Shown piece after piece: positions 9,671-43,884 of a stretch of 46,096 nucleotides of DNA; the stretch's first letter is position 1, and each line of letters starts with the position of its first letter. The stretch covers positions 1 to 46,096 of the forward strand of contig CAZYTZ010000003.1 in assembly GCA_964650545.1 (NCBI GenBank), read 5' to 3'. The position numbers and the translations under genes are program-made. The notes below the pieces were generated by a model that had not been told where the DNA came from, searched no databases, and saw only the letters and a list, made by a program, of their open reading frames with translations. This DNA is from Candidatus Micrarchaeota archaeon (GTDB taxonomy: Archaea > Micrarchaeota > Micrarchaeia > Anstonellales > Anstonellaceae).

Positions 9671-10639
9671 ATGTATGATTTCAAGTCGGGCACCCTATCA
9701 GCAGGCGGGCTCTCGCTTTCGCTTGACAATGCCGCAGGCGAGCTTTGCTTTGTTTCCCATGCGCACTCAGACCACACGTCAGCATTCGGCAAGGGCAAGC
9801 CCATAATAGCCTCGGACGAGACTTTCGCGATTGCAGGCCAGCGCGCGCAAAAGGCAGAGCTCCCCGAAGGCATGTCGCTTCACCACGCAGGGCACATGTT
9901 CGGCGCGCGCCAGCTTCTCGCGCAATTCGACGGAGGCACATTTGCCTACACCGGCGACTTTTCGCTGCACGACTCCTACACCGCGCGCGCTGCGGAAATC
10001 CTAAAGTGCGACACGCTCATGATCGACTCCACCTACTGCCTGCCTCAGATGCGCTTCCCCAAGCGCTATGAAGTGCTTTCAAAGATGGAAAAGTTCGTGA
10101 AGGCAAACAGCAGCGCAATACTAATGTTCGGCGCTTACTCAACAGGCAAGGCGCAGGAGATTGTCTCATTCCTGAACAGGGAATGCGGGGTTGCGCCAGT
10201 GGTGGGCCCACGAGCTGCGCGCGTGTGCGCTGCTTATGAAAAGTGCGGGGTCAGGCTGGACTACTTGGCAGCGGGAAGCGAGGAGGCGGAAGAGGCATCA
10301 AGGCACGCGCATTCTGCCATACTGCCGCCGCCAGAGGTGAATTTTGCTGCAGGCGCACGATTGGCGGCAGAGCGCGGACGGCATGTAAAGACCGCGGTGG
10401 CAACTGGCTGGGCTGCAAGCAGCCGCTTCCCGGTGGACGAGGCGTTCGCGCTTTCAGACCATGCTGACTTTGCAGACACCATGCGCTACATCTACGAATC
10501 CGAAGCAAAGGCAGTGATATGCGCAAACAGCAACTCTGCCTCTGCAGCGCATTATCTTAGGAGCATTGGCATCAACGCGGTTGAGAAGGGCGAGCCAAAC
10601 CCTGGCGTGCAGACCAAGCTTGCCGGAATGGAAGCATAA
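9671..10639 (+). CDS. MBL-fold beta-CASP-like nuclease
   Basis: SHAHSDH, AGHMFGA, YTGDF, DSTY, GKAQE, LSDHADF motifs; C-terminal QTKL may be a PCNA-binding motif. Confidence 0.85.
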   Translation: MYDFKSGTLSAGGLSLSLDNAAGELCFVSHAHSDHTSAFGKGKPIIASDETFAIAGQRAQKAELPEGMSLHHAGHMFGARQLLAQFDGGTFAYTGDFSLHDSYTARAAEILKCDTLMIDSTYCLPQMRFPKRYEVLSKMEKFVKANSSAILMFGAYSTGKAQEIVSFLNRECGVAPVVGPRAARVCAAYEKCGVRLDYLAAGSEEAEEASRHAHSAILPPPEVNFAAGARLAAERGRHVKTAVATGWAASSRFPVDEAFALSDHADFADTMRYIYESEAKAVICANSNSASAAHYLRSIGINAVEKGEPNPGVQTKLAGMEA

Positions 10640-10685
10640 TAATCATAAATTCATCCCGCGTAAAGCGGGCAGAGAGGGGGATCGC

Positions 10686-10991
10686 ATGGCAAAGGAAATG
10701 AAGGACGATGTGCTTGGCACCATAAAGGGCAAGATGCCTGTCTACAAAAACGGGCTTGACTCGTCAGGCGAGATAATACTTTGCGAAAGCGGCATAATAG
10801 TCCACACAGAAGGCAATACGCTTCGCGTGCCATTCAGCCACGTCAAAATCCTGGGAACGTCTGGCGACATGCCGCTTGGCAAGGTGGGCGTGGAGATGGA
10901 TGTTTTTGACCAGATGGGCGACAAGCACTATTTCCACTTCGGGATGTCCGACATGCACCTCAACACGCTCAAGCGCGCGTGCGAGAAGTGA
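10686..10991 (+). CDS. Hypothetical protein (beta-rich, possibly PH-like)
   Basis: GAGGGGGA SD, host-like codon usage; fold guess from alternating beta pattern and C-terminal helix. Confidence 0.65.
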   Translation: MAKEMKDDVLGTIKGKMPVYKNGLDSSGEIILCESGIIVHTEGNTLRVPFSHVKILGTSGDMPLGKVGVEMDVFDQMGDKHYFHFGMSDMHLNTLKRACEK

Positions 10992-11022
10992 GTGGGTATT
11001 ATATTCCCTTTCTGAGGAGAGA

Positions 11023-11526
11023 ATGAATATGGGGCAAGAACGCTTTCGCATCGGTCAAGCCGCCATGGAGTACTTGGTAACCTATGGATGGGCTCTGCTC
11101 GCGCTTTTTGTGGTGGTTGCCTACCTTATCTCATCAGGCGTGTTCTCAGCGAATTCGTTTGCCTCGCAGGAATGCGTCTTCCAGCCCGATCTCCCATGCT
11201 CATCATCCATACTTTACAAGTCAGGAAGCGACACCAAGCTTGAGTTCTCGCTCACAAACGGCCTGGGCTTTCCCATAGATGTGGAAAGCGTGGTCTACTC
11301 TCTGCCGGGTTTTGCGCCGCAGACTGGCCTGCCCAAGGTTGACCGGGAGTATGCGTCTGGGGAAAAAATAGAGTTCTCACACGTGTTTACTGGAGGCAGC
11401 CAGCCCCAGCCGCGCGACTTTAGGACAGTGACAGCCACGCTCAAATACTTGAACTGCCGCAACTCGCCTTGCAGCGGCCCCTACATGACCTCGGGCAGGA
11501 TTTCAGCAATCGTCGAGGAAGGCTGA
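11023..11526 (+). CDS. Class III signal peptide (type IV pilin-like) protein
   Basis: RIG|QAAMEYLVTYGWALL prepilin cleavage site and hydrophobic stretch; Cys pairs in the globular domain. Confidence 0.85.
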   Translation: MNMGQERFRIGQAAMEYLVTYGWALLALFVVVAYLISSGVFSANSFASQECVFQPDLPCSSSILYKSGSDTKLEFSLTNGLGFPIDVESVVYSLPGFAPQTGLPKVDREYASGEKIEFSHVFTGGSQPQPRDFRTVTATLKYLNCRNSPCSGPYMTSGRISAIVEEG

Positions 11527-11537
11527 GATGCGCCTTT
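11518..11537 (+). repeat. Direct repeat copy 1 (includes pilin-like gene stop codon)
   Basis: gaaggctgagatgcgccttt, 19/20 identical to 12414-12433. Confidence 0.85.
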
Positions 11538-11585
11538 GCTCCCTCTCAAACAAACATTTATATATTCTTTATACCACATTCTTAT

Positions 11586-12404
11586 ATGAACAAACAAGTG
11601 CCTTCAAGCGGACGCCATGCACCTGTTCTTGACTCAAGGATATTCAAAACCGGCAACCCGCAGGCTGACTTCATCCAGATGAAAGTGCTGACTGACCTTG
11701 GTACCTCGCTTGGTGACGTCAAGGCGGACAAGACAAGACAAAACAGGAGAAAATACTGTGCTGCACAGCTGCGGAAAAGGCCTGCCAACAAAAGCGGGCA
11801 GGATTTCACCAATGCCTATGTCACCTGGTTCTTCAAAAGCGTGAAGGAAAACCACGCCTTGCGCGATTTCCTGGCGGGCAAGCTTTCGGGGCAGACAGTT
11901 GTGGATTTGGGCTGCGGCAGTTCCTCTTCAGTCGAAATTGCACTGAAGATGATGGAGATGTTTGGGGCTTCAAAATATGTCGCAGTCGACCTTTCTCCCA
12001 GTGTCTGGTCTGCAAAACTCATAGAAAAGGCGAACATGAAAGGCGAAATAGAAGCCGCCCTTGTGCGGGAGGACATGGTGCTTTTTGCAGCCTCGCTCAA
12101 GGACAGCTCAGTCAATTTCCTGATAAGCGGAATAGATGATTCAACATTGTGTGACAAAGAGCCCCGCACAGTGTCGAGGCGCGATTGGTACGGGATAGAG
12201 CACATTCACTGGCGCTGGAAAGCACTTGCCAGCGACATCGCAAGAGCGACAGTGCAAGGTGGCATAGTGTTCGGCAATGATAGGTCTGCGATTGGGAATT
12301 ACATTGAGAAGCTGCGCCAGCCGTTCGCCAATTTCTTCCCAAGCAAAGACAAAGACCTATGCGCCGACATCTGCATCGACCCCTACTCCTATGTCAAGGC
12401 ATAA
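11586..12404 (+). CDS. Divergent SAM-dependent methyltransferase-like orphan
   Basis: VVDLGCG motif I and YVAVD motif II; TATA tttatata at 11557-11564 suggests a leaderless start at 11586. Confidence 0.65.
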   Translation: MNKQVPSSGRHAPVLDSRIFKTGNPQADFIQMKVLTDLGTSLGDVKADKTRQNRRKYCAAQLRKRPANKSGQDFTNAYVTWFFKSVKENHALRDFLAGKLSGQTVVDLGCGSSSSVEIALKMMEMFGASKYVAVDLSPSVWSAKLIEKANMKGEIEAALVREDMVLFAASLKDSSVNFLISGIDDSTLCDKEPRTVSRRDWYGIEHIHWRWKALASDIARATVQGGIVFGNDRSAIGNYIEKLRQPFANFFPSKDKDLCADICIDPYSYVKA

Positions 12405-12413
12405 GCCCCGTCT

Positions 12414-12433
12414 GAAGCCTGAGATGCGCCTTT
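12414..12433 (+). repeat. Direct repeat copy 2
   Basis: gaagcctgagatgcgccttt, 19/20 identical to 11518-11537. Confidence 0.85.
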
Positions 12434-12480
12434 TTAAAATTTAGCGCCCAATTTCCAACCAGCGACCAGAGGGAAGAGAA

Positions 12481-15400
12481 ATGGTTTACATAAAGGGTTT
12501 GAAATTCCGCGGCTTCAAGTCTTTCAGGCGTGCAGAGGCAAGCTTTGCCAATGGCTATGTGTGCCTCGCAGGCCCAAACGGCTCGGGCAAATCAAACGTT
12601 ACCGACGGCATACGCTTTGCGCTGGGCGAGGGCAGCCTAAAGGCGCTTCGCGCGAAAAAAGTTGCAGAGCTTGTCAACACTTCCTGCAAGTATGCGGAAG
12701 TCACGCTTTTCATAGACGGCGAGCGCAAGTACGAGATAAAGCGCGCCATAAATTCCGAGGGCAAGACCCTTTACAGGATAAACGGCAAGCGCTCCACGCG
12801 CACGCTGGTGATGGAGGAACTGCGCCAGTGCGGCATGGAGGCTGGCAGCCACAACATAATCGCGCAGGGCCAGGTGCAAAAAATAGTGGAGATGAGCGCA
12901 AAGGAGCGCCGCCAGATAATAGACTCAGTGGCAGGAATTGCGGAGTTCGACCAGAAAAAGCAGGAGGCCTTAGGCGAGCTTTCCAAAGTGGAGCAGAAAA
13001 TCACAGAGGCCGCAATCGTGCTTGGCGAGCGCGAGGCAAACCTGTCCATGCTTGAGCGCGAGAAGGACGACGCGCTTGCCTACACCGATGCGCAGACCAG
13101 CTTCAAGCGCGCAAAGGCATCGGTGGCAAACACAGAGCACTCAAAGCTTTCAAAATCATTCACGGACGCAGTGCAGAAGCACGCGGCTGCAAAGGCGGCG
13201 CTTGAGGAAATAGAAAAGCAGTCATCAGTGCTCTCAGGGCGCATAAGCGAGCTTGAGGTTGCCAAAAAGCCCATAATGGACAAGATAGGCTCGTCCTCCA
13301 GCCGCGAAGCAGCGCTTCAGGAAATACAGGAAATAAAAGTCTCCATAGGAAGCGACAATACCATGTTTTCCGAGCGCAAGCGCGAGGCTGGAAAGCTCGA
13401 GTTCTCGCAAAAAACATTCGACAAGCAGCTGTCTGCAATCAAAAAGTCGCAGAAGGACAACGAGGCTAGGGAAAAGGAAATTTCGGCAGAGCTTGAAAAA
13501 CTCGGCTCGCAGATTGCGGAGCTTGAGAAAAAGATGGGTGTGCAGTCAGACTCTGCCGCGCAGGAAATCGCGCAAAAGCTCGAGTTTCTCTCATCGGAAA
13601 TAATGTCCCTCAAAGAGCAGAAAGCAAGCGTGGACTCAGCTCTTTCGGAAAAGGAAAAGTCCCTTTCAGGCAGGCGCGAGGAAAAGGAAAGGCTGGCCTC
13701 CATGCTTGGCGAGGACAAGGCTGCAAAGCAGGAGGGCGAGCGGGGCGTGCTTGAAAAGGAGGCGCTCTCGCACCAAAAAGCGCTTGACGCTCTTTTCGAG
13801 CAGGAGAAGCAGCTAAACCGCCAGCTTCCGGAGCTTGACAGGAAGCTGCTTTCAACGAAGGAAAAGGCAGCCACGCTTCGCGCATCAATCTCGCCCTCGG
13901 CAGGGAGCATGGCGATTCGCGCGGTCGAGGAGATGAAGCAAAAGGGAATGCGCGGGATTTTCGGCACAGTCTCCTCTCTCATCTCATGCGACCACAAGCA
14001 CACTGTCGCAATAGAGGCGTCCGCAGGGCAGCGGCTCAACTACGTGGTGGTCGACGATATGAACACCGCCATGAAGGCAATCGAGAAGCTCAAGTCGCAA
14101 AAGGCGGGCAGGTGCACTTTCATCCCAATCGGGGACATGCCCTCCCGGGCTGGGGGCGACTTGCCAAAGTCTGCCAAGAACGCAGATGGCTGCTTGGGCG
14201 AGCTGATTGACTTTGTGAAGTACGACGCAATCTACAAGCACGCAATGGAATACGCGTTTTCAGGCACGCTGCTTTTCGACACAGTGCAAAACGCGAAAAA
14301 AGCTGGCGTGGGCAAAGCGCGCATGGTGACAATGGGCGGCGAGCTTCTTGAGCGCTCGGGAATAATCACTGGCGGCGCGCAAAGAGGCTCCATACTCTCT
14401 AAAGGCTCGCTTGACAAGCTGGAAGCAGAGGCAGCTTCCATTGAGGCCGAGCGCAAGGAAATCTATTCCACTCTTTACTCGCTGCGCGAGGAAATGTCCG
14501 CAAAGCGCAAGGAAAAGGCGGACGCGGAAGTTGCGCTTCGCGGGCTTGAGATAGAGATGGAATCCGCTTTGGCGCGGCGCGAGAGCGCGCAAAAGGCGCG
14601 CGAGGCAATGGAAAGCATAGATTCATTGATTGCGGCAGCCGGAAAGGAGATTGCCGCAATGAAAAAGCGCGCAGGCGAGCTTTCAGGCAATCTCGAGTTT
14701 GCGCTTAAGCAGCATGCGGCTGAAAAGCAAAGGCAGGCATCTGTGCAGGAAAATGCGAAAAAGGCGGATTCAGAGGCGCAAAAAAGTCTCCAGGCGCTTC
14801 TCAGCCAGCGTTCTTCTCTCGAGGCTCAATTTGCGGCAAAGAAAGAGGAAGCAGGGCGATTGTTGCAGGAGCTTGCGGCAAAGCAATCGGAGGCCGAGGG
14901 GGCAAAATCAGCGCTTGCAATCTGCAAAAAGGAAATATCATCGCTCTCAGACGGGGTAGCAAAGTCGCAAAAAACTCTCAGGGAAAAGGAACAGCGGCTC
15001 GAGGAAATAAGCACGGCTTCCAAGAGGCTGCTCGCCAAGCTCACCGAGCTTGAGGGGCAGATAAAGGACGTGGCTGCGCAGCTTGGCAAGGTCAAAGCTG
15101 ACGAGGAAAAGAAGAACCGCGAAATGGTCTCGCTTGAGGCAAGCAGGCAGGTGACTGAGCAGAGGCTGTCTGACCTCAAGGCAGAGCTTGAGCAATACTC
15201 CGGGGTGCCCACGATAGACGCGCCGCGCACAGAGCTTGAGGAGCTTGCGCGCACAAGCCAGGCGAAAATGGACGCGCTTGGCAGCGTGAACCTGCGCGCA
15301 CCTGAGATTTACGGGCAGAAGAAAAAGGAAATCGACGATGTCAAAAGCCGCGTGGAGTCGCTTTCCAGCGAAAAGAACGCAGTGCTTCTCATGATGGACG

Positions 15401-15894
15401 AGATTGACGCGAGGAAGCGCGCAATCTTCATCTCAACGTTCACTTCAGTGAATGACAACTTCCGCCGCCTGTTCGGATTCACCTTCAAAGGCGAAGGCAC
15501 ACTTTTGCTTGAAAAGCCATCCTCTCCCTTCGAGGGCGGGCTGCACGTGAAGGTGCGCGAGGAAAACCGCGACAAGTACCTGGACTCAATGTCTGGCGGC
15601 GAAAAGTCGCTCATTGCTCTCATGTTCATCTTTGCCATACAGATGCACAAGGCCGCGCCGTTTTACATACTTGACGAGGCTGACGCCGCGCTTGACAAGG
15701 AGAACTCGCGCAAGCTTGCCGACCTGATAAAGCAGCTTGCAGGAAAGACGCAGTTCATCGTGGTCACGCACAACGACACGATTCTGCAGAACGCGGATGT
15801 CGCGCTTGGCGTGACGCGCACAGAGGACGGAAGCAAGATAGTGGGCGTGCAGCTCACCGCGGCTGCAACCGTGGCGCGCGTGAAAAAAGCCTAG
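12481..15894 (+). CDS. smc: Chromosome segregation protein SMC
   Basis: Walker A GPNGSGKSN, Q-loop IAQG, hinge (GIFG, GRCTFIP, GIITGG), signature MSGGEKS, Walker B ILDEADAALD, long coiled coils. Confidence 0.97.
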   Translation: MVYIKGLKFRGFKSFRRAEASFANGYVCLAGPNGSGKSNVTDGIRFALGEGSLKALRAKKVAELVNTSCKYAEVTLFIDGERKYEIKRAINSEGKTLYRINGKRSTRTLVMEELRQCGMEAGSHNIIAQGQVQKIVEMSAKERRQIIDSVAGIAEFDQKKQEALGELSKVEQKITEAAIVLGEREANLSMLEREKDDALAYTDAQTSFKRAKASVANTEHSKLSKSFTDAVQKHAAAKAALEEIEKQSSVLSGRISELEVAKKPIMDKIGSSSSREAALQEIQEIKVSIGSDNTMFSERKREAGKLEFSQKTFDKQLSAIKKSQKDNEAREKEISAELEKLGSQIAELEKKMGVQSDSAAQEIAQKLEFLSSEIMSLKEQKASVDSALSEKEKSLSGRREEKERLASMLGEDKAAKQEGERGVLEKEALSHQKALDALFEQEKQLNRQLPELDRKLLSTKEKAATLRASISPSAGSMAIRAVEEMKQKGMRGIFGTVSSLISCDHKHTVAIEASAGQRLNYVVVDDMNTAMKAIEKLKSQKAGRCTFIPIGDMPSRAGGDLPKSAKNADGCLGELIDFVKYDAIYKHAMEYAFSGTLLFDTVQNAKKAGVGKARMVTMGGELLERSGIITGGAQRGSILSKGSLDKLEAEAASIEAERKEIYSTLYSLREEMSAKRKEKADAEVALRGLEIEMESALARRESAQKAREAMESIDSLIAAAGKEIAAMKKRAGELSGNLEFALKQHAAEKQRQASVQENAKKADSEAQKSLQALLSQRSSLEAQFAAKKEEAGRLLQELAAKQSEAEGAKSALAICKKEISSLSDGVAKSQKTLREKEQRLEEISTASKRLLAKLTELEGQIKDVAAQLGKVKADEEKKNREMVSLEASRQVTEQRLSDLKAELEQYSGVPTIDAPRTELEELARTSQAKMDALGSVNLRAPEIYGQKKKEIDDVKSRVESLSSEKNAVLLMMDEIDARKRAIFISTFTSVNDNFRRLFGFTFKGEGTLLLEKPSSPFEGGLHVKVREENRDKYLDSMSGGEKSLIALMFIFAIQMHKAAPFYILDEADAALDKENSRKLADLIKQLAGKTQFIVVTHNDTILQNADVALGVTRTEDGSKIVGVQLTAAATVARVKKA

Positions 15895-20532: not shown

Positions 20533-21432
20533 ATGGACGACCGCACAGTAATCATCTCCAGCCAGGAACTTGTGGACCACACCGTCCTTACGAGGAAAAA
20601 AAACGAGCTTGCCTTCAAGCGCGACGTTCTTCTCCGCTCAGGCGCAAAAGCCGGTGACCTGCACCTGCGAACTGTTGAGGGCGAGCTTGCGCTGGTGGGC
20701 GACAAGCTCTCCCCATTGGAGGGCAAGCTGTCAGAGCTTGACATGATAACAGTATTGCCGCACCGCAAGGAAATCGGCGAGTACACGTCGCAGATAAACC
20801 AGTTCTCGCGCCCCGAGCTTGACATCGCCGTGAAAAACAAGAGCGGCACTGCTTATGACCTCATGCGCAAGCGCGCGTTTCTGGTGAAAGGGAATTTTGA
20901 GCGCCGCGAGGACATTGCGCGGCTCACAATCATGCTCAACAGCATGCCGCGCAAGGACGCGGAGTCCATCCGCTCACTCATAGAAGAAGGGGCAGGGGAC
21001 GACGCTGATGTCTCGTTTTTGCCGAAGGAAAAGCAGCAAGAGCTCCTCAATCTCTCCTCGCGCATCGGCAGGCAGTGCTGCGTGTTTGCCGGGAGCTTTT
21101 CCCTGGATAAAAAAAAAGCTGAATCTTCCGAGCTGAAGCCAACTGACGAGGTCTCGCGCACAATTGCCAACGGCAGGTCAGTGTGGGTCGACGCCCCAAA
21201 GGCATTTGAGTTTGACGCGAACGAAAAGGAACTGGCATTGCTCCTTGCAAAAATGCAGGCGAAAAACGCGGAAAAGCAGGCGCGCAGCCTGAATGAGGAA
21301 GAGCTGGTCTACCTCGACAAGCTGCAGGCCGACTATTTGGCAGCGCGCAACCGCCGTGCCACGCTCGTGAAGGGGATGGAGCTTGGCGAAACCGCGAAGG
21401 TGTACAGGAAAAGGCTGCATGGAGAGTTCTAG
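20533..21432 (+). CDS. Hypothetical helical protein with host-like codon usage
   Basis: TATA ttataaa at 20504-10 puts the probable start at ATG 20533. Confidence 0.75.
   Translation: MDDRTVIISSQELVDHTVLTRKKNELAFKRDVLLRSGAKAGDLHLRTVEGELALVGDKLSPLEGKLSELDMITVLPHRKEIGEYTSQINQFSRPELDIAVKNKSGTAYDLMRKRAFLVKGNFERREDIARLTIMLNSMPRKDAESIRSLIEEGAGDDADVSFLPKEKQQELLNLSSRIGRQCCVFAGSFSLDKKKAESSELKPTDEVSRTIANGRSVWVDAPKAFEFDANEKELALLLAKMQAKNAEKQARSLNEEELVYLDKLQADYLAARNRRATLVKGMELGETAKVYRKRLHGEF
21381..21432 (+). repeat. Gene 3' end, repeat copy 1
   Basis: 42/52 ungapped identity to 22589-22640. Confidence 0.9.
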
Positions 21433-21488: not shown

Positions 21489-22580
21489 ATGTTGACGTTT
21501 ACACGCAAGCATGCGCCACACTTCTCTCCTGAAAAAACCGCAAGGAATAAGCTTCGCAATATCTTTCGAAGCAAACATGTGCTTTACGAGGACAGGCTGA
21601 TTTGCGTCGCATCTTACGTATCCACAACTACCAACCTTCCGGCGGGTCACCGCGGCATCACGATTGTCGAGATTGCAGACCTTCATCTCCGGGAGCCAAT
21701 GTACAAGGAGCCTTCCAAGCCCTACTCCCCGGACAGGCTGGATAAGCTTCTTGGCTGGCGCGGCAATGACGGTAAAAACCGGCTTGACAGACTGCTTGGA
21801 AGGAATGGCAAGCCGGAACTTCGCAACACCAACCACTTTGACAGGCTCATAAAAAAACAGCTTGAGCATACCATCGCAATGCTGCAAAAGCTCCCGGCGC
21901 TTCTGCAGGAAAATGGCAAATCCCCCGACGTCGTGCTTCTTACCGGGGATTTTATCTCCCGCAACTCAAAGGACATCACGCCGCAAGCGCAGGTCGCACT
22001 CTCCAATCTTTTCACCGCTGCGTCCATCCGAGCATACGTCCTTGGCAATACCGACTATGCGAAGGGCAGCACTCTGGAAGAGCGTGCACGCGAAACCGGA
22101 AATATAATTCAAAAGATTGATTCCGCGGGGTTTGCCAACCTCACAAATGCGCTTTTGCAGGTGAAGGTGGGCGGTGCATCTGTCAGCGTAGTCGGCGTGG
22201 ATGACTACAACAAAGGCAAGCCGCGCCAGCCCGCAATTCCCAGCACAAGCGAACCAAACCTTGTGCTTGTAGCACTCCACAACCTCGACGCACTCACAAA
22301 GGAATGCCTCAAGAATGCATCTGCCATTTTCTCGGGCCACACGCACGGGGGTGAGTTCCGTCTGCTCTTCGGTCTTTTTACCGGGTTTCCCCTCCTGCGC
22401 AAGAAAGGAACATACAAGAACCTCAACGGGCAGACAAACGAGCTAAAGATTTTCCCTGAAGGGCATTTTCCCCTCTCGTTGATGTCATGGGGCGTTGGCA
22501 GGTACCTTTTCTGGCGCACCGGGGTGGCCAAGGGGCACATAAACGTCGTAACGCTCGTCCCTGAGGGGCAGCGCCCATAA
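21489..22580 (+). CDS. Divergent calcineurin-like metallophosphoesterase (YkuE-like) orphan
   Basis: ADLH, LTGDF, LGNTD (usually GNHD), GVDD, LHN, SGHTHGG; TATA tttatat at 21460-66. Confidence 0.8.
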   Translation: MLTFTRKHAPHFSPEKTARNKLRNIFRSKHVLYEDRLICVASYVSTTTNLPAGHRGITIVEIADLHLREPMYKEPSKPYSPDRLDKLLGWRGNDGKNRLDRLLGRNGKPELRNTNHFDRLIKKQLEHTIAMLQKLPALLQENGKSPDVVLLTGDFISRNSKDITPQAQVALSNLFTAASIRAYVLGNTDYAKGSTLEERARETGNIIQKIDSAGFANLTNALLQVKVGGASVSVVGVDDYNKGKPRQPAIPSTSEPNLVLVALHNLDALTKECLKNASAIFSGHTHGGEFRLLFGLFTGFPLLRKKGTYKNLNGQTNELKIFPEGHFPLSLMSWGVGRYLFWRTGVAKGHINVVTLVPEGQRP

Positions 22581-22588
22581 AATTGCGG

Positions 22589-22640
22589 GCTTGCCGAAAC
22601 CGTGAAAGTCTACAAGAAAAGGCCACCGGCAGAGTTCTAG
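22589..22640 (+). pseudogene. Displaced degenerate copy of the 3' end of gene 20533-21432
   Basis: Translates LAETVKVYKKRPPAEF* versus LGETAKVYRKRLHGEF*; 42/52 nt identical, same TAG stop. Confidence 0.85.
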
Positions 22641-41859: not shown

Positions 41860-42855
41860 ATGGACATGATATACTATGGCTACCTTGCAGCGGCTTTTGC
41901 AGCCTCAGTTGTCGTGGGCCGCATTGCAGGCCCGATAGTGGTGGCATTGCTCGAATACCTCACGCGCAAGACAAAAAGCACGCTTGACGACAGGGTGATT
42001 GCGGCGGTGAAGGTGCCGCTCGAGTCCTTTTTCTTCCTGGTGGTGTTCTACCTGCTCCTCAACAGCTTCCCAGTGCTTGAGGCCGCGGCAAGCTTCCTTG
42101 ACGAGTACACAGCAGCCATAATCATCCTGATAGCAGCTTTCATGGCCTCCGAGGCATCAGGCGCTGCGATACGCTGGTACTATGACGAGGGATACAAGGG
42201 CGCGCGCCTGGTGAAAATGGACCTTTCGCTGCTCCCGCTGTTGCGCAAGGTGACCAAGGTGGCAATCTACCTGATTGGCATCACGATTGCGCTTTCCACC
42301 ACGGGCTTTGACGTCACAGGCATAATAGCAGTCACCAGCGTGGCCGGCTTGATACTCGGGCTTGCCTCGCAGGAAACGCTTGCCAACATATTCGCAGGGC
42401 TCGCGCTGCAGCTTGACAGGCCCTACCATTACGGAGACTACCTCTCGCTTCCGTTCGGAGGCGGAACCGCCAGGCTTGAGAAGATCGGCATGAGGACAAC
42501 GCGCCTGACAGACATGCTGCACAACACAATAATAGTGTCAAACTCAGAGTTTGCCAAACTGCGCGTGGTGAACCTGTCCATGCCCGACGGGATGAGCATA
42601 ATCCCTGTAACAGCCGAGCTTCCGCTCTCAGCCGACCTTGCCGCACTCAAGAAGCGCATCGTCGCCTCCCTTTCGCGCGAAAAGCCCAACGGGCTCATGC
42701 CTGAGCGCGGCTACGAGCTTTCCATAGACGCCGTAAAGCCCGCCTCCCTAGGGGTATCATTCTCATTCTGGGTGAAGGGCTATCAGCATGCCGGCAAAAT
42801 AAGCGGAATTGTGAACCGAGAAATCCTCTCGTTCTCAAAGGGGGAGAAGAAGTAG
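41860..42855 (+). CDS. mscS: Small-conductance mechanosensitive channel
   Basis: [15 protein letters not shown]...DRPY..GD, IGMRTT, NSE..K..VVN.S. Confidence 0.9.
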
Positions 42856-43884
42856 CTACCCGGGCCGCACAACCGCAAAATCGGACACGTCGCCAGGCAC
42901 GCTTCCCATGGAGGCGACAAACCACTTCACCAGCCTCTCGTTGTTCGTGCCCCACATTCCCGACTTTGCCACGATGTCGTGCACGCGGTCGCGCGTTATC
43001 TTCACCTTCTTGCCAGAGTCGAAAACATCAGCGTTGTCCATGCACTTCACGTAGCTCTCTATTGCCATGAACAGCGGTATGAGGCAAAACATCCTCACGC
43101 GAAGCGCTTTTTTCGGAAGGAGCAAAATGTACTGCATTGCCGCGTCAATGTACCTGCGCGCGTCGTCTATCTGCTCGCGCAGCACGGAGAGCGCCTTTTC
43201 CCTGTTCTCAGCAGAGCAGATGTTTGAGTAGCATAGACCGTACTTTGCAAGAAGCTTCTTGGGCCAGTAATACCTGTGAGATGCCACGTCGTCTGCAATG
43301 TCGCGCAGTATGTTCACCTTCTGAAGTGCCAGGCCGAACTCGCGCGCGTATTTTGCGAGCTGGCGCTTGAGCCGCGCGGTGATTATCCTGTTGAAGTGCA
43401 GCAGGTCGTTGAAAAGATGCCCTATGATGCCTGCGACGTAGTAGCTGTACCTGTCCTGGTCAGAAAAAGTCTCAATGGGCTTTCTCTGGAATTCGCACAT
43501 GCCGCGCGCCATCACGCGCGCGCGCTTTGCTATCGCCTTGCGCGCGCCTGCAGGCAGCGAGAAACACGCGCGCACAAGCGCAGGCAATGATGCCAGCAAT
43601 TCCTTTTCGTAAGTGTAATTGAGGCTTGCAAGCATTTTCCTTGCGCATGTCTCTGCAGCGACATCATTTGCCTTCCTTCTTGAAAGAAGCGACAAAAATT
43701 CGGAGAACAATTCCTTTTTCAGCGCAAGCGACGCGCTCGAGTCCTCCACAGTGTCAATCACGCGAAAAACAAGGTAGGAGACCATCATCTGCTCGTTTAA
43801 GGGCTTTGGCAGTATCCTTATGCAAAGCGCAAAGCTCCTGGATACATTGGGGAGTATTCTCCAGCATTTCCGAATATCTTTCAT
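42856..43884 (-). CDS. Squalene/phytoene synthase family (squalene synthase-like)
   Basis: VSRSFA, YLVFRVIDTVED, Y.YYVAG.IG, FGLALQKVNILRD..DD, FCLIP. Confidence 0.9.
   Translation of the reverse strand: MKDIRKCWRILPNVSRSFALCIRILPKPLNEQMMVSYLVFRVIDTVEDSSASLALKKELFSEFLSLLSRRKANDVAAETCARKMLASLNYTYEKELLASLPALVRACFSLPAGARKAIAKRARVMARGMCEFQRKPIETFSDQDRYSYYVAGIIGHLFNDLLHFNRIITARLKRQLAKYAREFGLALQKVNILRDIADDVASHRYYWPKKLLAKYGLCYSNICSAENREKALSVLREQIDDARRYIDAAMQYILLLPKKALRVRMFCLIPLFMAIESYVKCMDNADVFDSGKKVKITRDRVHDIVAKSGMWGTNNERLVKWFVASMGSVPGDVSDFAVVRPG

Follow-up and report, generated by a model that had tools for sequence, protein, structure and literature searches.

The stretch of DNA analysed here (the window, 46,096 nucleotides (nt)) is contig C3 (CAZYTZ010000003.1, positions 1 to 46,096) of the 1.22-Mb, 92-contig genome of a Candidatus Micrarchaeota archaeon (assembly GCA_964650545.1, 93% complete; hereafter G000), the genes of which carry promoters of the TATA and B recognition element (BRE) type. 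In this window a pilin-like gene and smc are separated by an 876-bp segment with one promoter and one open reading frame (ORF) of 272 amino acids (aa), an orphan gene with a methyltransferase-like product. The segment is bracketed by a 20-bp direct repeat, the first copy of which includes the stop codon of the pilin-like gene and the second of which begins 9 nt past the TAA of the orphan (12402-12404). An earlier note on this DNA had described the repeat, with 19 of 20 positions identical, and had characterized the enclosed 0.9 kb as a TATA box and one divergent gene; coordinates and content were both confirmed (Table 1). The note also placed a cgtc just upstream of both copies. The motif is indeed present at each (11511-11514 and 12409-12412), but the offsets differ, being 3 nt ahead of copy 1 and 1 nt ahead of copy 2.

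The order 101-aa gene, pilin-like gene and smc is retained in 20 of the 23 smc loci of the genus, where pilin-like orthologues (39-58% identity) lie directly upstream of smc, a gene found in 22 of the 23 genus genomes. The pilin-smc gap is below ~200 nt in 17 of those 20 loci and only ~70 nt in the nearest relatives, G003, G018 and G006 (SMC head 93-94% identical), versus 954 nt in the window genome. The ~70 nt comprise the stop codon, a short spacer and a conserved GC-rich stretch with a TTTTTAA(A/T)ATTT promoter. When these loci are aligned (alignment A4), the left junction agrees with the pilin end of the relatives as far as ...GCGCCTTT, beyond which it diverges, and the right junction rejoins the relatives' smc promoter from AGATGCGCCTTTTTAAAATTT; the spacers of the relatives are too diverged for base-by-base identity with the repeat. 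No match to the orphan was found in the 22 smc loci of relatives, 20 of which gave a pilin match, and among 61 related genomes the orphan is present in four, at another place in each. This comparison shows the insertion of a self-contained transcription unit, an archaeal TATA promoter plus the 272-aa gene, into a ~70-nt spacer between the pilin-like gene and smc. The empty site in the relatives also bears out the proposal of the earlier note that a promoter-plus-gene unit had been placed right behind a core gene.

Because the junctions follow the relatives' pilin end on the left and their smc promoter on the right, the comparison likewise shows the 20-bp repeat to be the landing site in duplicate, composed of the last two pilin codons, the stop and the BRE and first T's of the smc TATA box. 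Through the left copy the pilin-like gene stays whole, and through the right copy the smc promoter does. Both copies lie on the + strand, and their single difference, G/C at position 5 (GGC/GCC), is non-synonymous; allowing a 2-nt gap, the match becomes 24/27. Rather than recurring at many gene ends, as the earlier note reasoned a generic terminator or operator would, the 20-mer has only two matches in the window at up to 3 mismatches (none of 100 shuffles gave two), and a search of the whole genome (1,220,247 bases, 92 contigs) at the same tolerance returned these two copies and no third. Its uniqueness in the genome argues that the repeat is no generic terminator or operator. In order-2 Markov shuffles of the genome there were 1-5 pairs of length ~20 within 6 kb, and ~1 pair of at least 18/19 within 1 kb per genome (0-2 in 8 shuffles). 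By itself, a 19/20 repeat is only modestly rare. It is the position that gives the repeat its meaning, because copy 1 sits exactly at the point where the match with the relatives' pilin end breaks off, and copy 2 exactly where the match with their smc promoter begins again.

Table 1 Features of the focal locus and of the second repeat-flanked gene in the window
Feature	Position	Strand	Description
Conserved 101-aa gene (left synteny anchor)	10686..10991	+	ORF; no Pfam match; orthologues upstream of pilin-like gene in relatives
Pilin-like gene	11029..11526	+	ORF; no Pfam match; last two codons and TGA within repeat copy 1
Repeat A, pilin 3' end	11492..11510	+	Partner A' at 11795-11813, 18/19
Direct repeat, copy 1	11518..11537	+	GAA GGC TGA plus 11 nt; last two codons and TGA stop of pilin-like gene
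Insert, 876 bp	11538..12413	+	Missing at orthologous site of relatives
TATA-like box of insert's promoter	11557..11564	+	~22 nt before ATG; surrounding 13-mer unique in genome
Orphan gene, 272 aa	11586..12404	+	Predicted divergent class I S-adenosylmethionine (SAM)-dependent methyltransferase fold
Repeat A', inside orphan gene	11795..11813	+	G009 homologue much less similar at this place
Direct repeat, copy 2	12414..12433	+	Relic of pilin end; now BRE and first T's of smc TATA box
smc promoter	12424..12439	+	BRE-like GC stretch and TTTTTAAAA; conserved in relatives
smc (right synteny anchor)	12481..15894	+	Pfam SMC_N 1.3e-54, SMC_hinge 5.2e-28
Second case, functional copy	21382..21432	+	3' end and TAG of upstream 377-aa gene
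Second case, cargo	21489..22580	+	Metallophosphoesterase-like, Pfam Metallophos 4.7e-07; own TATA-like box
Second case, relic copy	22590..22640	+	Followed by promoter that in relatives follows stop of 377-aa gene

Contigs from other public runs span the junctions, the left in two of four runs and the right in one of four, and the arrangement is therefore no assembly chimera. These four lake-water runs, searched over 10300-13700, yielded no contig joint that skips the insert and no circle junction, their contigs being of low depth and without bearing on polymorphism. A further direct repeat, A/A', adjoins the left junction. It is colinear with the main repeat and unique in the genome, and its A copy corresponds to the conserved end of the pilin-like gene in relatives. 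As ~1 such pair per genome is expected by chance anywhere, its place beside the junction is unlikely to be fortuitous; A/A' may have been left by pairing while the unit integrated, or may be a later templated correction.

For the product of the orphan gene, Pfam returned methyltransferase matches only, all of them below cut-off. Among clusters drawn from 5.8 billion proteins it has two, its own and that of one 57%-identical protein, and the sole relative with a name is annotated as coming from a Candidatus Micrarchaeota archaeon. An all-against-all search recovered 126 remote relatives, 40 of which were aligned; six of those 40 match Methyltransf_25. Within the family (alignment A3) D107 and G109 stand beside the near-invariant L108 and G111 in a glycine-rich motif I. 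An AlphaFold2 (AF2) model built from the alignment of 40 relatives reached a mean predicted local distance difference test (pLDDT) score of 84.5, and a model from the single sequence was dropped (pLDDT 34.5). When the former was compared with the PDB by Foldseek, all 47 matches listed were methyltransferases or entries with the methyltransferase fold, at template modelling (TM) scores of ~0.3-0.45. The modelled orphan protein is a divergent class I SAM-methyltransferase fold, Rossmann-like and with motif I. No match to a DNA-methylase family emerged from Pfam, the Methyltransf_25 relatives or Foldseek, and the insert holds no restriction gene.

The only close homologue of the orphan (59%) is found in G009 in a different gene context, between a TrmB-like gene and a triosephosphate-isomerase-like gene (label from the translation). 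Promoter and ORF align between G000 and G009 and the flanks do not, so that the unit of transfer is promoter plus gene. The promoter stretch of the insert is itself conserved in the G009 alignment, and the distance of ~22 nt between its TATA-like box and the ATG suggests a leaderless mRNA. The G009 flanks share only a weak T-rich similarity of 18 nt (78%). An empty site for the G009 copy was sought and abandoned, as its borders could not be set, another gene coming after the TrmB-like neighbour in G006 and G012. A scan of metagenome contigs with the orphan gave 56 pattern matches, none of which was confirmed. The insert has a GC content of 0.50, compared with a gene mean of 0.54 (standard deviation 0.033). 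As to its left neighbour, the N-terminus of the pilin-like protein resembles an archaeal class III signal/pilin segment in its predicted sequence.

We searched the insert and the genome for features of known mobile elements. The 876-bp insert has no terminal inverted repeats (best match 6 nt, equalled by 73% of shuffles) and, by Pfam, no integrase. The insert ends share no common motif, inverted repeat or attC-like or palindromic 3' site, and no recombinase lies in or beside the inserts. Thus, the inverted repeats and fixed short duplication of a DNA transposon or miniature inverted-repeat transposable element are missing, as is the integrase that an integrative element would encode within itself; there is neither an attC site nor an array as in integron cassettes, and the unit has its own promoter. 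The earlier note had proposed looking for solo tyrosine recombinases or reverse transcriptases elsewhere in the genome. This search turned up a single Phage_integrase match, a 422-aa tyrosine recombinase with a zinc ribbon on contig C7, where it adjoins an MCM N-terminal/OB fragment at the contig end (35780-37048 and 34055-34843). C7 is the large contig of lowest GC (0.50), and the MCM/recombinase region is probably an integrated plasmid or virus, an element separate from the inserts. No reverse transcriptase, Cas1, DDE_Tnp_1 or Ku was found in the 93% complete assembly. Six TnpB-like (Cas12f1-like_TNB) genes lie on C9, C25, C29, C33, C45 and C56, none of them near the repeat-flanked inserts examined. 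RadA is present in the genome; on contig C41 (2788-5040) the RadA/Rad51 domain appears as two matches in one 912-aa open frame, a split that suggests an intein.

The geometry at the focal site is not unique. We compared the last 48 nt of each of 1217 ORFs, plus 12 nt downstream, with the 5 kb that follow on the same strand. Eighteen of the 1217 ends scored at least 17, versus 2 and 3 in the reverse-complement controls. These 18 comprise six relics beyond cargo, two short-range duplications without a gene, seven tandem paralogues or repeats and three chance-looking matches. In the six cargo-bearing cases a relic of a gene's 3' end lies beyond one or two cargo genes, which may be on either strand, and the repeats measure 20, 23, 26, 29, 50 and 82 nt. 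Besides the pilin-like gene with its methyltransferase-like cargo (19/20), they are a 377-aa gene with a metallophosphoesterase (40/50 in the scored stretch), an acylphosphatase gene with an MNT-HEPN pair (29/29), another pilin-like gene with a 392-aa cargo gene of unknown type (24/26), LeuRS with an AAA_14 ATPase (67/82) and, on contig C5, a 236-aa gene with a second AAA_14 ATPase (21/23). The metallophosphoesterase case is the second one in the window, which the earlier note had already paired with the focal locus; its repeat is indeed unrelated in sequence to the focal one, and the wider scan supports the expectation of that note that the geometry would recur in this genome with unrelated repeat sequences. 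In 21 loci of relatives, the 1.5 kb around the orthologous gene end yielded no copy of this metallophosphoesterase cargo. Overall, the cargo belongs to accessory or defence types (the MNT-HEPN pair, the two AAA_14/DUF4143 ATPases and the metallophosphoesterase) or is unknown. When 5' ends were scanned in the same manner, no true relic emerged; the matches were paralogues, an intergenic 22-mer repeated three times and the second window case, picked up via a mis-called start.

A scan of relatives' loci totalling 445,462 bases gave 8 of 567 gene ends with a score of at least 17, and 0 in the control. A relic of the LeuRS end lies beyond a HicAB-like pair (labelled from the translations) in G003 (36/40) and G012 (24/31). 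G018 has a HicAB-like pair at LeuRS without a relic, and also a relic of the end of the 377-aa gene beyond a different, 253-aa gene. In G022 an MNT-HEPN pair is found at the same acylphosphatase end as in G000, without a relic. The pilin-smc spacer is in its turn an insertion hotspot. In G022 (G022:C10, 9934-11841) it is occupied by a Tsp45I-type restriction gene with an N6_N4 DNA methylase, in G012 by ~95 extra bases, and in G006 there are two versions (G006:C16 and G006:C6; SMC head 93% and 92% identical to that of the window), one empty and one with a 178-aa ORF, this bin probably being a mixture of two strains.

Of the cargo families, AAA_14/DUF4143 was followed across the order, where it occurs in 43 of 176 genomes with a patchy, multi-copy distribution. 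No AAA_14 gene lies next to LeuRS in 21 loci of relatives, and the best match to the AAA_14 cargo in the order is 61% identical and comes from another genus. At 12 loci from 12 genomes of the order (in G000 the genes are at C40 2728-3912 and C5 38833-39993), AAA_14/DUF4143 genes are flanked by direct repeats of 50-155 nt in nine, with reverse-complement controls scoring 9-18. Three of these repeats are copies of the 3' region of a neighbour. The other six are ~55 nt long with palindromes of the TTTCC-N7-GGAAA type, one before the start and one after the stop, and a gene with such ~55-nt repeats could possibly be a single-gene mobile unit. Our search of the literature for DUF4143 together with mobile elements found nothing relevant.

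Several other repeats were seen in the genome. Beyond the acylphosphatase relic (contig C9, 1-182) lie ~70 nt with a GC-rich hairpin, seemingly bracketed by an imperfect ~11-nt repeat of the end of a convergent gene, an arrangement that suggests a second, gene-less insertion of the same style. On contig C1 (43200-43375) the 3' end and TGA of the gene at 42792-43232 appear again 143 nt downstream (26/33), with no gene between the copies and a hairpin-rich piece within the relic. An intergenic 19-23-mer occurs three times on contig C8 (31332, 32006 and 33508), each time 9-30 nt before a gene start and bracketing one to three genes; by its placement it may be a shared operator or a further repeat-flanked set. 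Contig C43 carries an exact 45-nt intergenic repeat (1077 and 2647), with a T-run and a palindrome, around three small ORFs. On contig C6 a 27-nt stretch resembling the 3' half of a tRNA is present in two copies 867 nt apart (2905 and 3772; 24/27), and may be the remnant of integration into a putative tRNA gene. A 631-nt exact tandem duplication over a pilin-like gene pair on contig C18 (17732-19000) is either real or an assembly artefact. Finally, exact 55-nt repeats 155 nt apart were found on C4, C5, C6, C10, C13, C17 and C22 (for example C4 1553/1708). Four of these contigs contain runs of 100 or 200 N, and the 55-nt repeats look like a scaffolding artefact (k = 55) that inflates repeat counts.

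With moderate confidence, we attribute these insertions to host recombination and repair and not to a dedicated element or recombinase. Incoming DNA would be joined through one homology- or microhomology-anchored joint and one illegitimate joint, and where the second joint falls a few tens of bases upstream of the first, the intervening stretch would come to lie on both sides; a homologous crossover in a conserved gene end, combined with an illegitimate joint just upstream of the resident end, would have this outcome. In a compact genome the survivors would be the events that duplicate the stop codon and the promoter of the neighbour, and the repeats would span stop codons because only such events survive. 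Units flanked by repeats of conserved gene ends could subsequently move between related lineages via homologous recombination at those ends. At the focal site the first duplication would require a de novo event, either a staggered break that was filled in or a template switch that re-entered the chromosome further back.

Some relics read as coding variants of a gene end, and not as products of decay, a hint of a homology anchor. The two LeuRS copies differ at six synonymous third positions and at two codons for residues that are variable among relatives, and the relic retains a Phe found in G012 and G018. The relic on C5 shows two synonymous differences and TGA versus TAG. In G012 the relic encodes the same ...PSIMIS-stop peptide as the functional copy but with AGC where the latter has TCC, the AGC/TCC choice being as in the gene of G021. 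The attempt to polarise the LeuRS and 377-aa-gene copies by means of relatives was given up, with synonymous sites saturated and signals mixed. As a further hint, cassettes shared between lineages are more alike than the core genes beside them: the HicAB-like units are 84-89% identical at the nucleotide level, compared with 74-77% for the adjacent LeuRS ends, and the MNT-HEPN pair (G000 versus G022) has synonymous divergences (dS) of 0.40 and 0.83, compared with 1.84 for the adjacent gene. Taken further, and as a tentative reading that we hold with low confidence, the gene ends of the genus may be landing pads for recombinase-free cassette exchange by short-homology recombination. Promoter-gene modules would travel with a copy of the neighbour's end and push the resident end downstream as a relic, and could be swapped or lost through the repeats, with toxin-antitoxin (TA) pairs, AAA_14/DUF4143 ATPases and methyltransferase-like genes as cargo.

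A number of observations weigh against the favoured reading of host recombination. Some concern the data: the gene ends in our scan came from a crude longest-ORF caller, and the relatives are kin and hence no independent samples. Not every insertion leaves the footprint, as the cargo of the G022 spacer has no repeat of at least 8 nt and that with the 178-aa ORF in G006 a repeat of only 5 nt. At the focal site the 19 identical bases carry no information on origin, the 20-bp repeat falls below the 30-bp limit of PMC2853133, the 19-nt A/A' repeat adjoining the junction is left without explanation, and homology-anchored import alone fails to account for the first duplication, because the repeat holds 11 nt of lineage-specific spacer and so calls for at least one de novo duplication in this lineage. 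The differences of the second window case are mostly non-synonymous. In a hand count over six repeat pairs, 17 of 31 differences fall at third codon positions, where plain duplication with relic decay would predict ~47% by a rough estimate, and the models are not separated by these values. In addition, the dS of SMC (0.51) and of the 101-aa gene (0.79) overlap those of the cargo, so vertical descent could also account for the shared cassettes.

The main rival, possible but less favoured, is a pure de novo target duplication with no homology anchor. Repeats would be identical at birth and the relic would then decay, the routes being a staggered break or two nicks 20-80 nt apart that are filled in, or a template switch with a backward offset. 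Lineage-specific non-coding spacer is part of the focal repeat, which must thus be a copy of this exact site, the acylphosphatase copies are identical, the copies of the second window case share derived states relative to relatives, and the third-position share just given is near the prediction of this model; the CGTC before both focal copies could be a re-entry microhomology. What speaks against decay alone is that the LeuRS, C5 and G012 relics keep frame, stop and amino acids via synonymous or codon-family changes, a degree of conservation that is unlikely under neutral decay, with probabilities which we roughly estimate, each case taken separately, at ~0.07 for LeuRS and ~0.06 for C5. Moreover, the same cargo is found at the same gene end across lineages with a dS lower than that of the flanking gene, and Ku, as noted, was not found in the 93% complete assembly. 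A dedicated cassette system, in which a trans-acting recombinase would integrate circular promoter-gene units at 3' ends with the repeats as attL/attR cores, is unlikely. It would fit the 3' bias (six 3'-end relics and no true 5'-end relic), the one tyrosine recombinase of the genome, the recurrence of AAA_14/DUF4143 cargo with flanking repeats in nine of 12 loci, and the identical 15-nt core of the focal repeat, the lone mismatch of which, on the outer left side, would agree with an attP and an attB that differ beyond the crossover. Yet selection would also produce the bias, since a harmless 5' duplication needs a whole promoter; the sole recombinase belongs to the separate low-GC element with the MCM fragment at a contig end; the insert ends lack a common motif, inverted repeats or an attC-like structure; and other insertions in the same spacer have no repeats. 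A transposase or site-specific system is disfavoured because repeat length varies, from 20 to ~80 nt, the repeats are unrelated between cases and cargo orientation is free. The undescribed gene-acquisition system that the earlier note had proposed is accordingly not needed to explain the evidence. The geometry has already been published.

Two further explanations would remove the insertion or the repeat altogether. That the gene was ancestral at the site and was lost by relatives through repeat-mediated deletion is very improbable. Direct repeats do promote precise loss, and what is reported in PMC3119063 on 16 indels with direct repeats of 10-19 bp interprets them as deletions. However, a 20-bp copy of the pilin stop 9 nt behind another stop would not pre-exist by chance and itself needs an insertion-type origin, the insert splits an otherwise conserved BRE/TATA unit, and the relatives carry the orphan, where they have it at all, always elsewhere. 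Least credible of all is a chance match, a shared regulatory site or an assembly artefact. The shuffles do yield about one comparable pair per genome within 1 kb, and the assembly does contain artefactual 55-nt repeats beside 100-N gaps, but the focal repeat has no third copy in the genome and coincides exactly with the two borders that the relatives define; it is also shorter than the apparent k of 55, and its junctions are bridged in other runs.

What stands out is how often this footprint, with cargo of unrelated kinds, recurs in the very compact genome of an archaeon and in its relatives. Several relics resemble coding variants of another lineage, which points to short-homology recombination at gene ends. 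The footprint further illustrates how gene-dense tiny genomes can gain defence-type genes without harming overlapping stops and promoters. If the landing-pad reading were true, insertion with long target duplication would gain the mechanism that it has lacked, and the AAA_14/DUF4143 genes with ~55-nt repeats (six of 12 loci) would become candidate single-gene mobile elements.

Phage morons are promoter-gene-terminator units between conserved genes, target duplications being no defining feature of them. The focal insert is likewise a self-contained transcription unit between two conserved genes, transferred as promoter and ORF (G000 versus G009), but here in a cellular chromosome. Like integron cassettes, single-gene units accumulate at a defined site; unlike them, they have their own promoter and a target-derived repeat, and no attC-like site, integron integrase or array was found. 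Segments bounded by direct repeats are also reported from another archaeon, Haloquadratum walsbyi, where, as described in the relevant part of PMC3119063, strain-specific segments are bordered by direct repeats of 10-19 bp, of which the other strain has a single copy, and the differences are read as deletions. By contrast, outgroups polarise the present event as an insertion, and the repeats systematically include the stop codon. An integrase-less island of E. coli excises via short repeats without RecA, according to the portion of PMC5426353 that deals with it.

A closer parallel in one respect is found in the Rhs/type VI secretion system (T6SS) loci, for which the passages of PMC5361080 on orphan 3' ends and immunity genes propose homology-facilitated illegitimate recombination. 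As in that displacement, new modules come in after a conserved upstream sequence that provides the anchor, the former 3' end survives as a relic farther downstream, and one site receives successive cargo. The Rhs/T6SS modules, however, are toxin-immunity units with long conserved 5' parts, whereas the anchors here are the last tens of bases of ordinary genes, and that model, so far as those passages set it out, fails by itself to explain the focal repeat, which includes non-coding spacer.

The nearest precedent is insertion with long target duplication, in print since 2000 (Nobusato et al. 2000, reference 37 of PMC2853133). In the sections of Furuta et al. 2010 (PMC2853133) that treat it, bacterial restriction-modification genes lie between long target duplications of variable length, and no other mobile elements accompany them; a 30-bp lower limit was set on the repeat, no archaeal system survived the screen as reported there, an orphan methyltransferase was among the cargo, and those sections leave the mechanism without explanation. 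We found no literature on such repeats in Micrarchaeota. The focal locus shares the described hallmarks, in that the insert is missing at the relatives' empty site, a unique target of variable length is directly duplicated, there is no transposase, integrase or inverted repeat, and the repeat spans the stop of a flanking gene that is left intact, a start or stop being often spanned in the published cases. It departs from the published cases, as far as those sections present them, in its archaeal host and in a focal repeat of 20 bp versus more than 30, the sister cases having 50 and 82 nt. Its cargo, too, is of another kind, a methyltransferase fold of non-DNA type, with TA pairs, AAA ATPases and a phosphoesterase elsewhere. 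Since this cargo is unrelated to restriction-modification, cutting by a restriction enzyme cannot explain such insertions in general. With the focal event, insertion with long target duplication has an archaeal example outside restriction-modification, one of several in this genome and genus.

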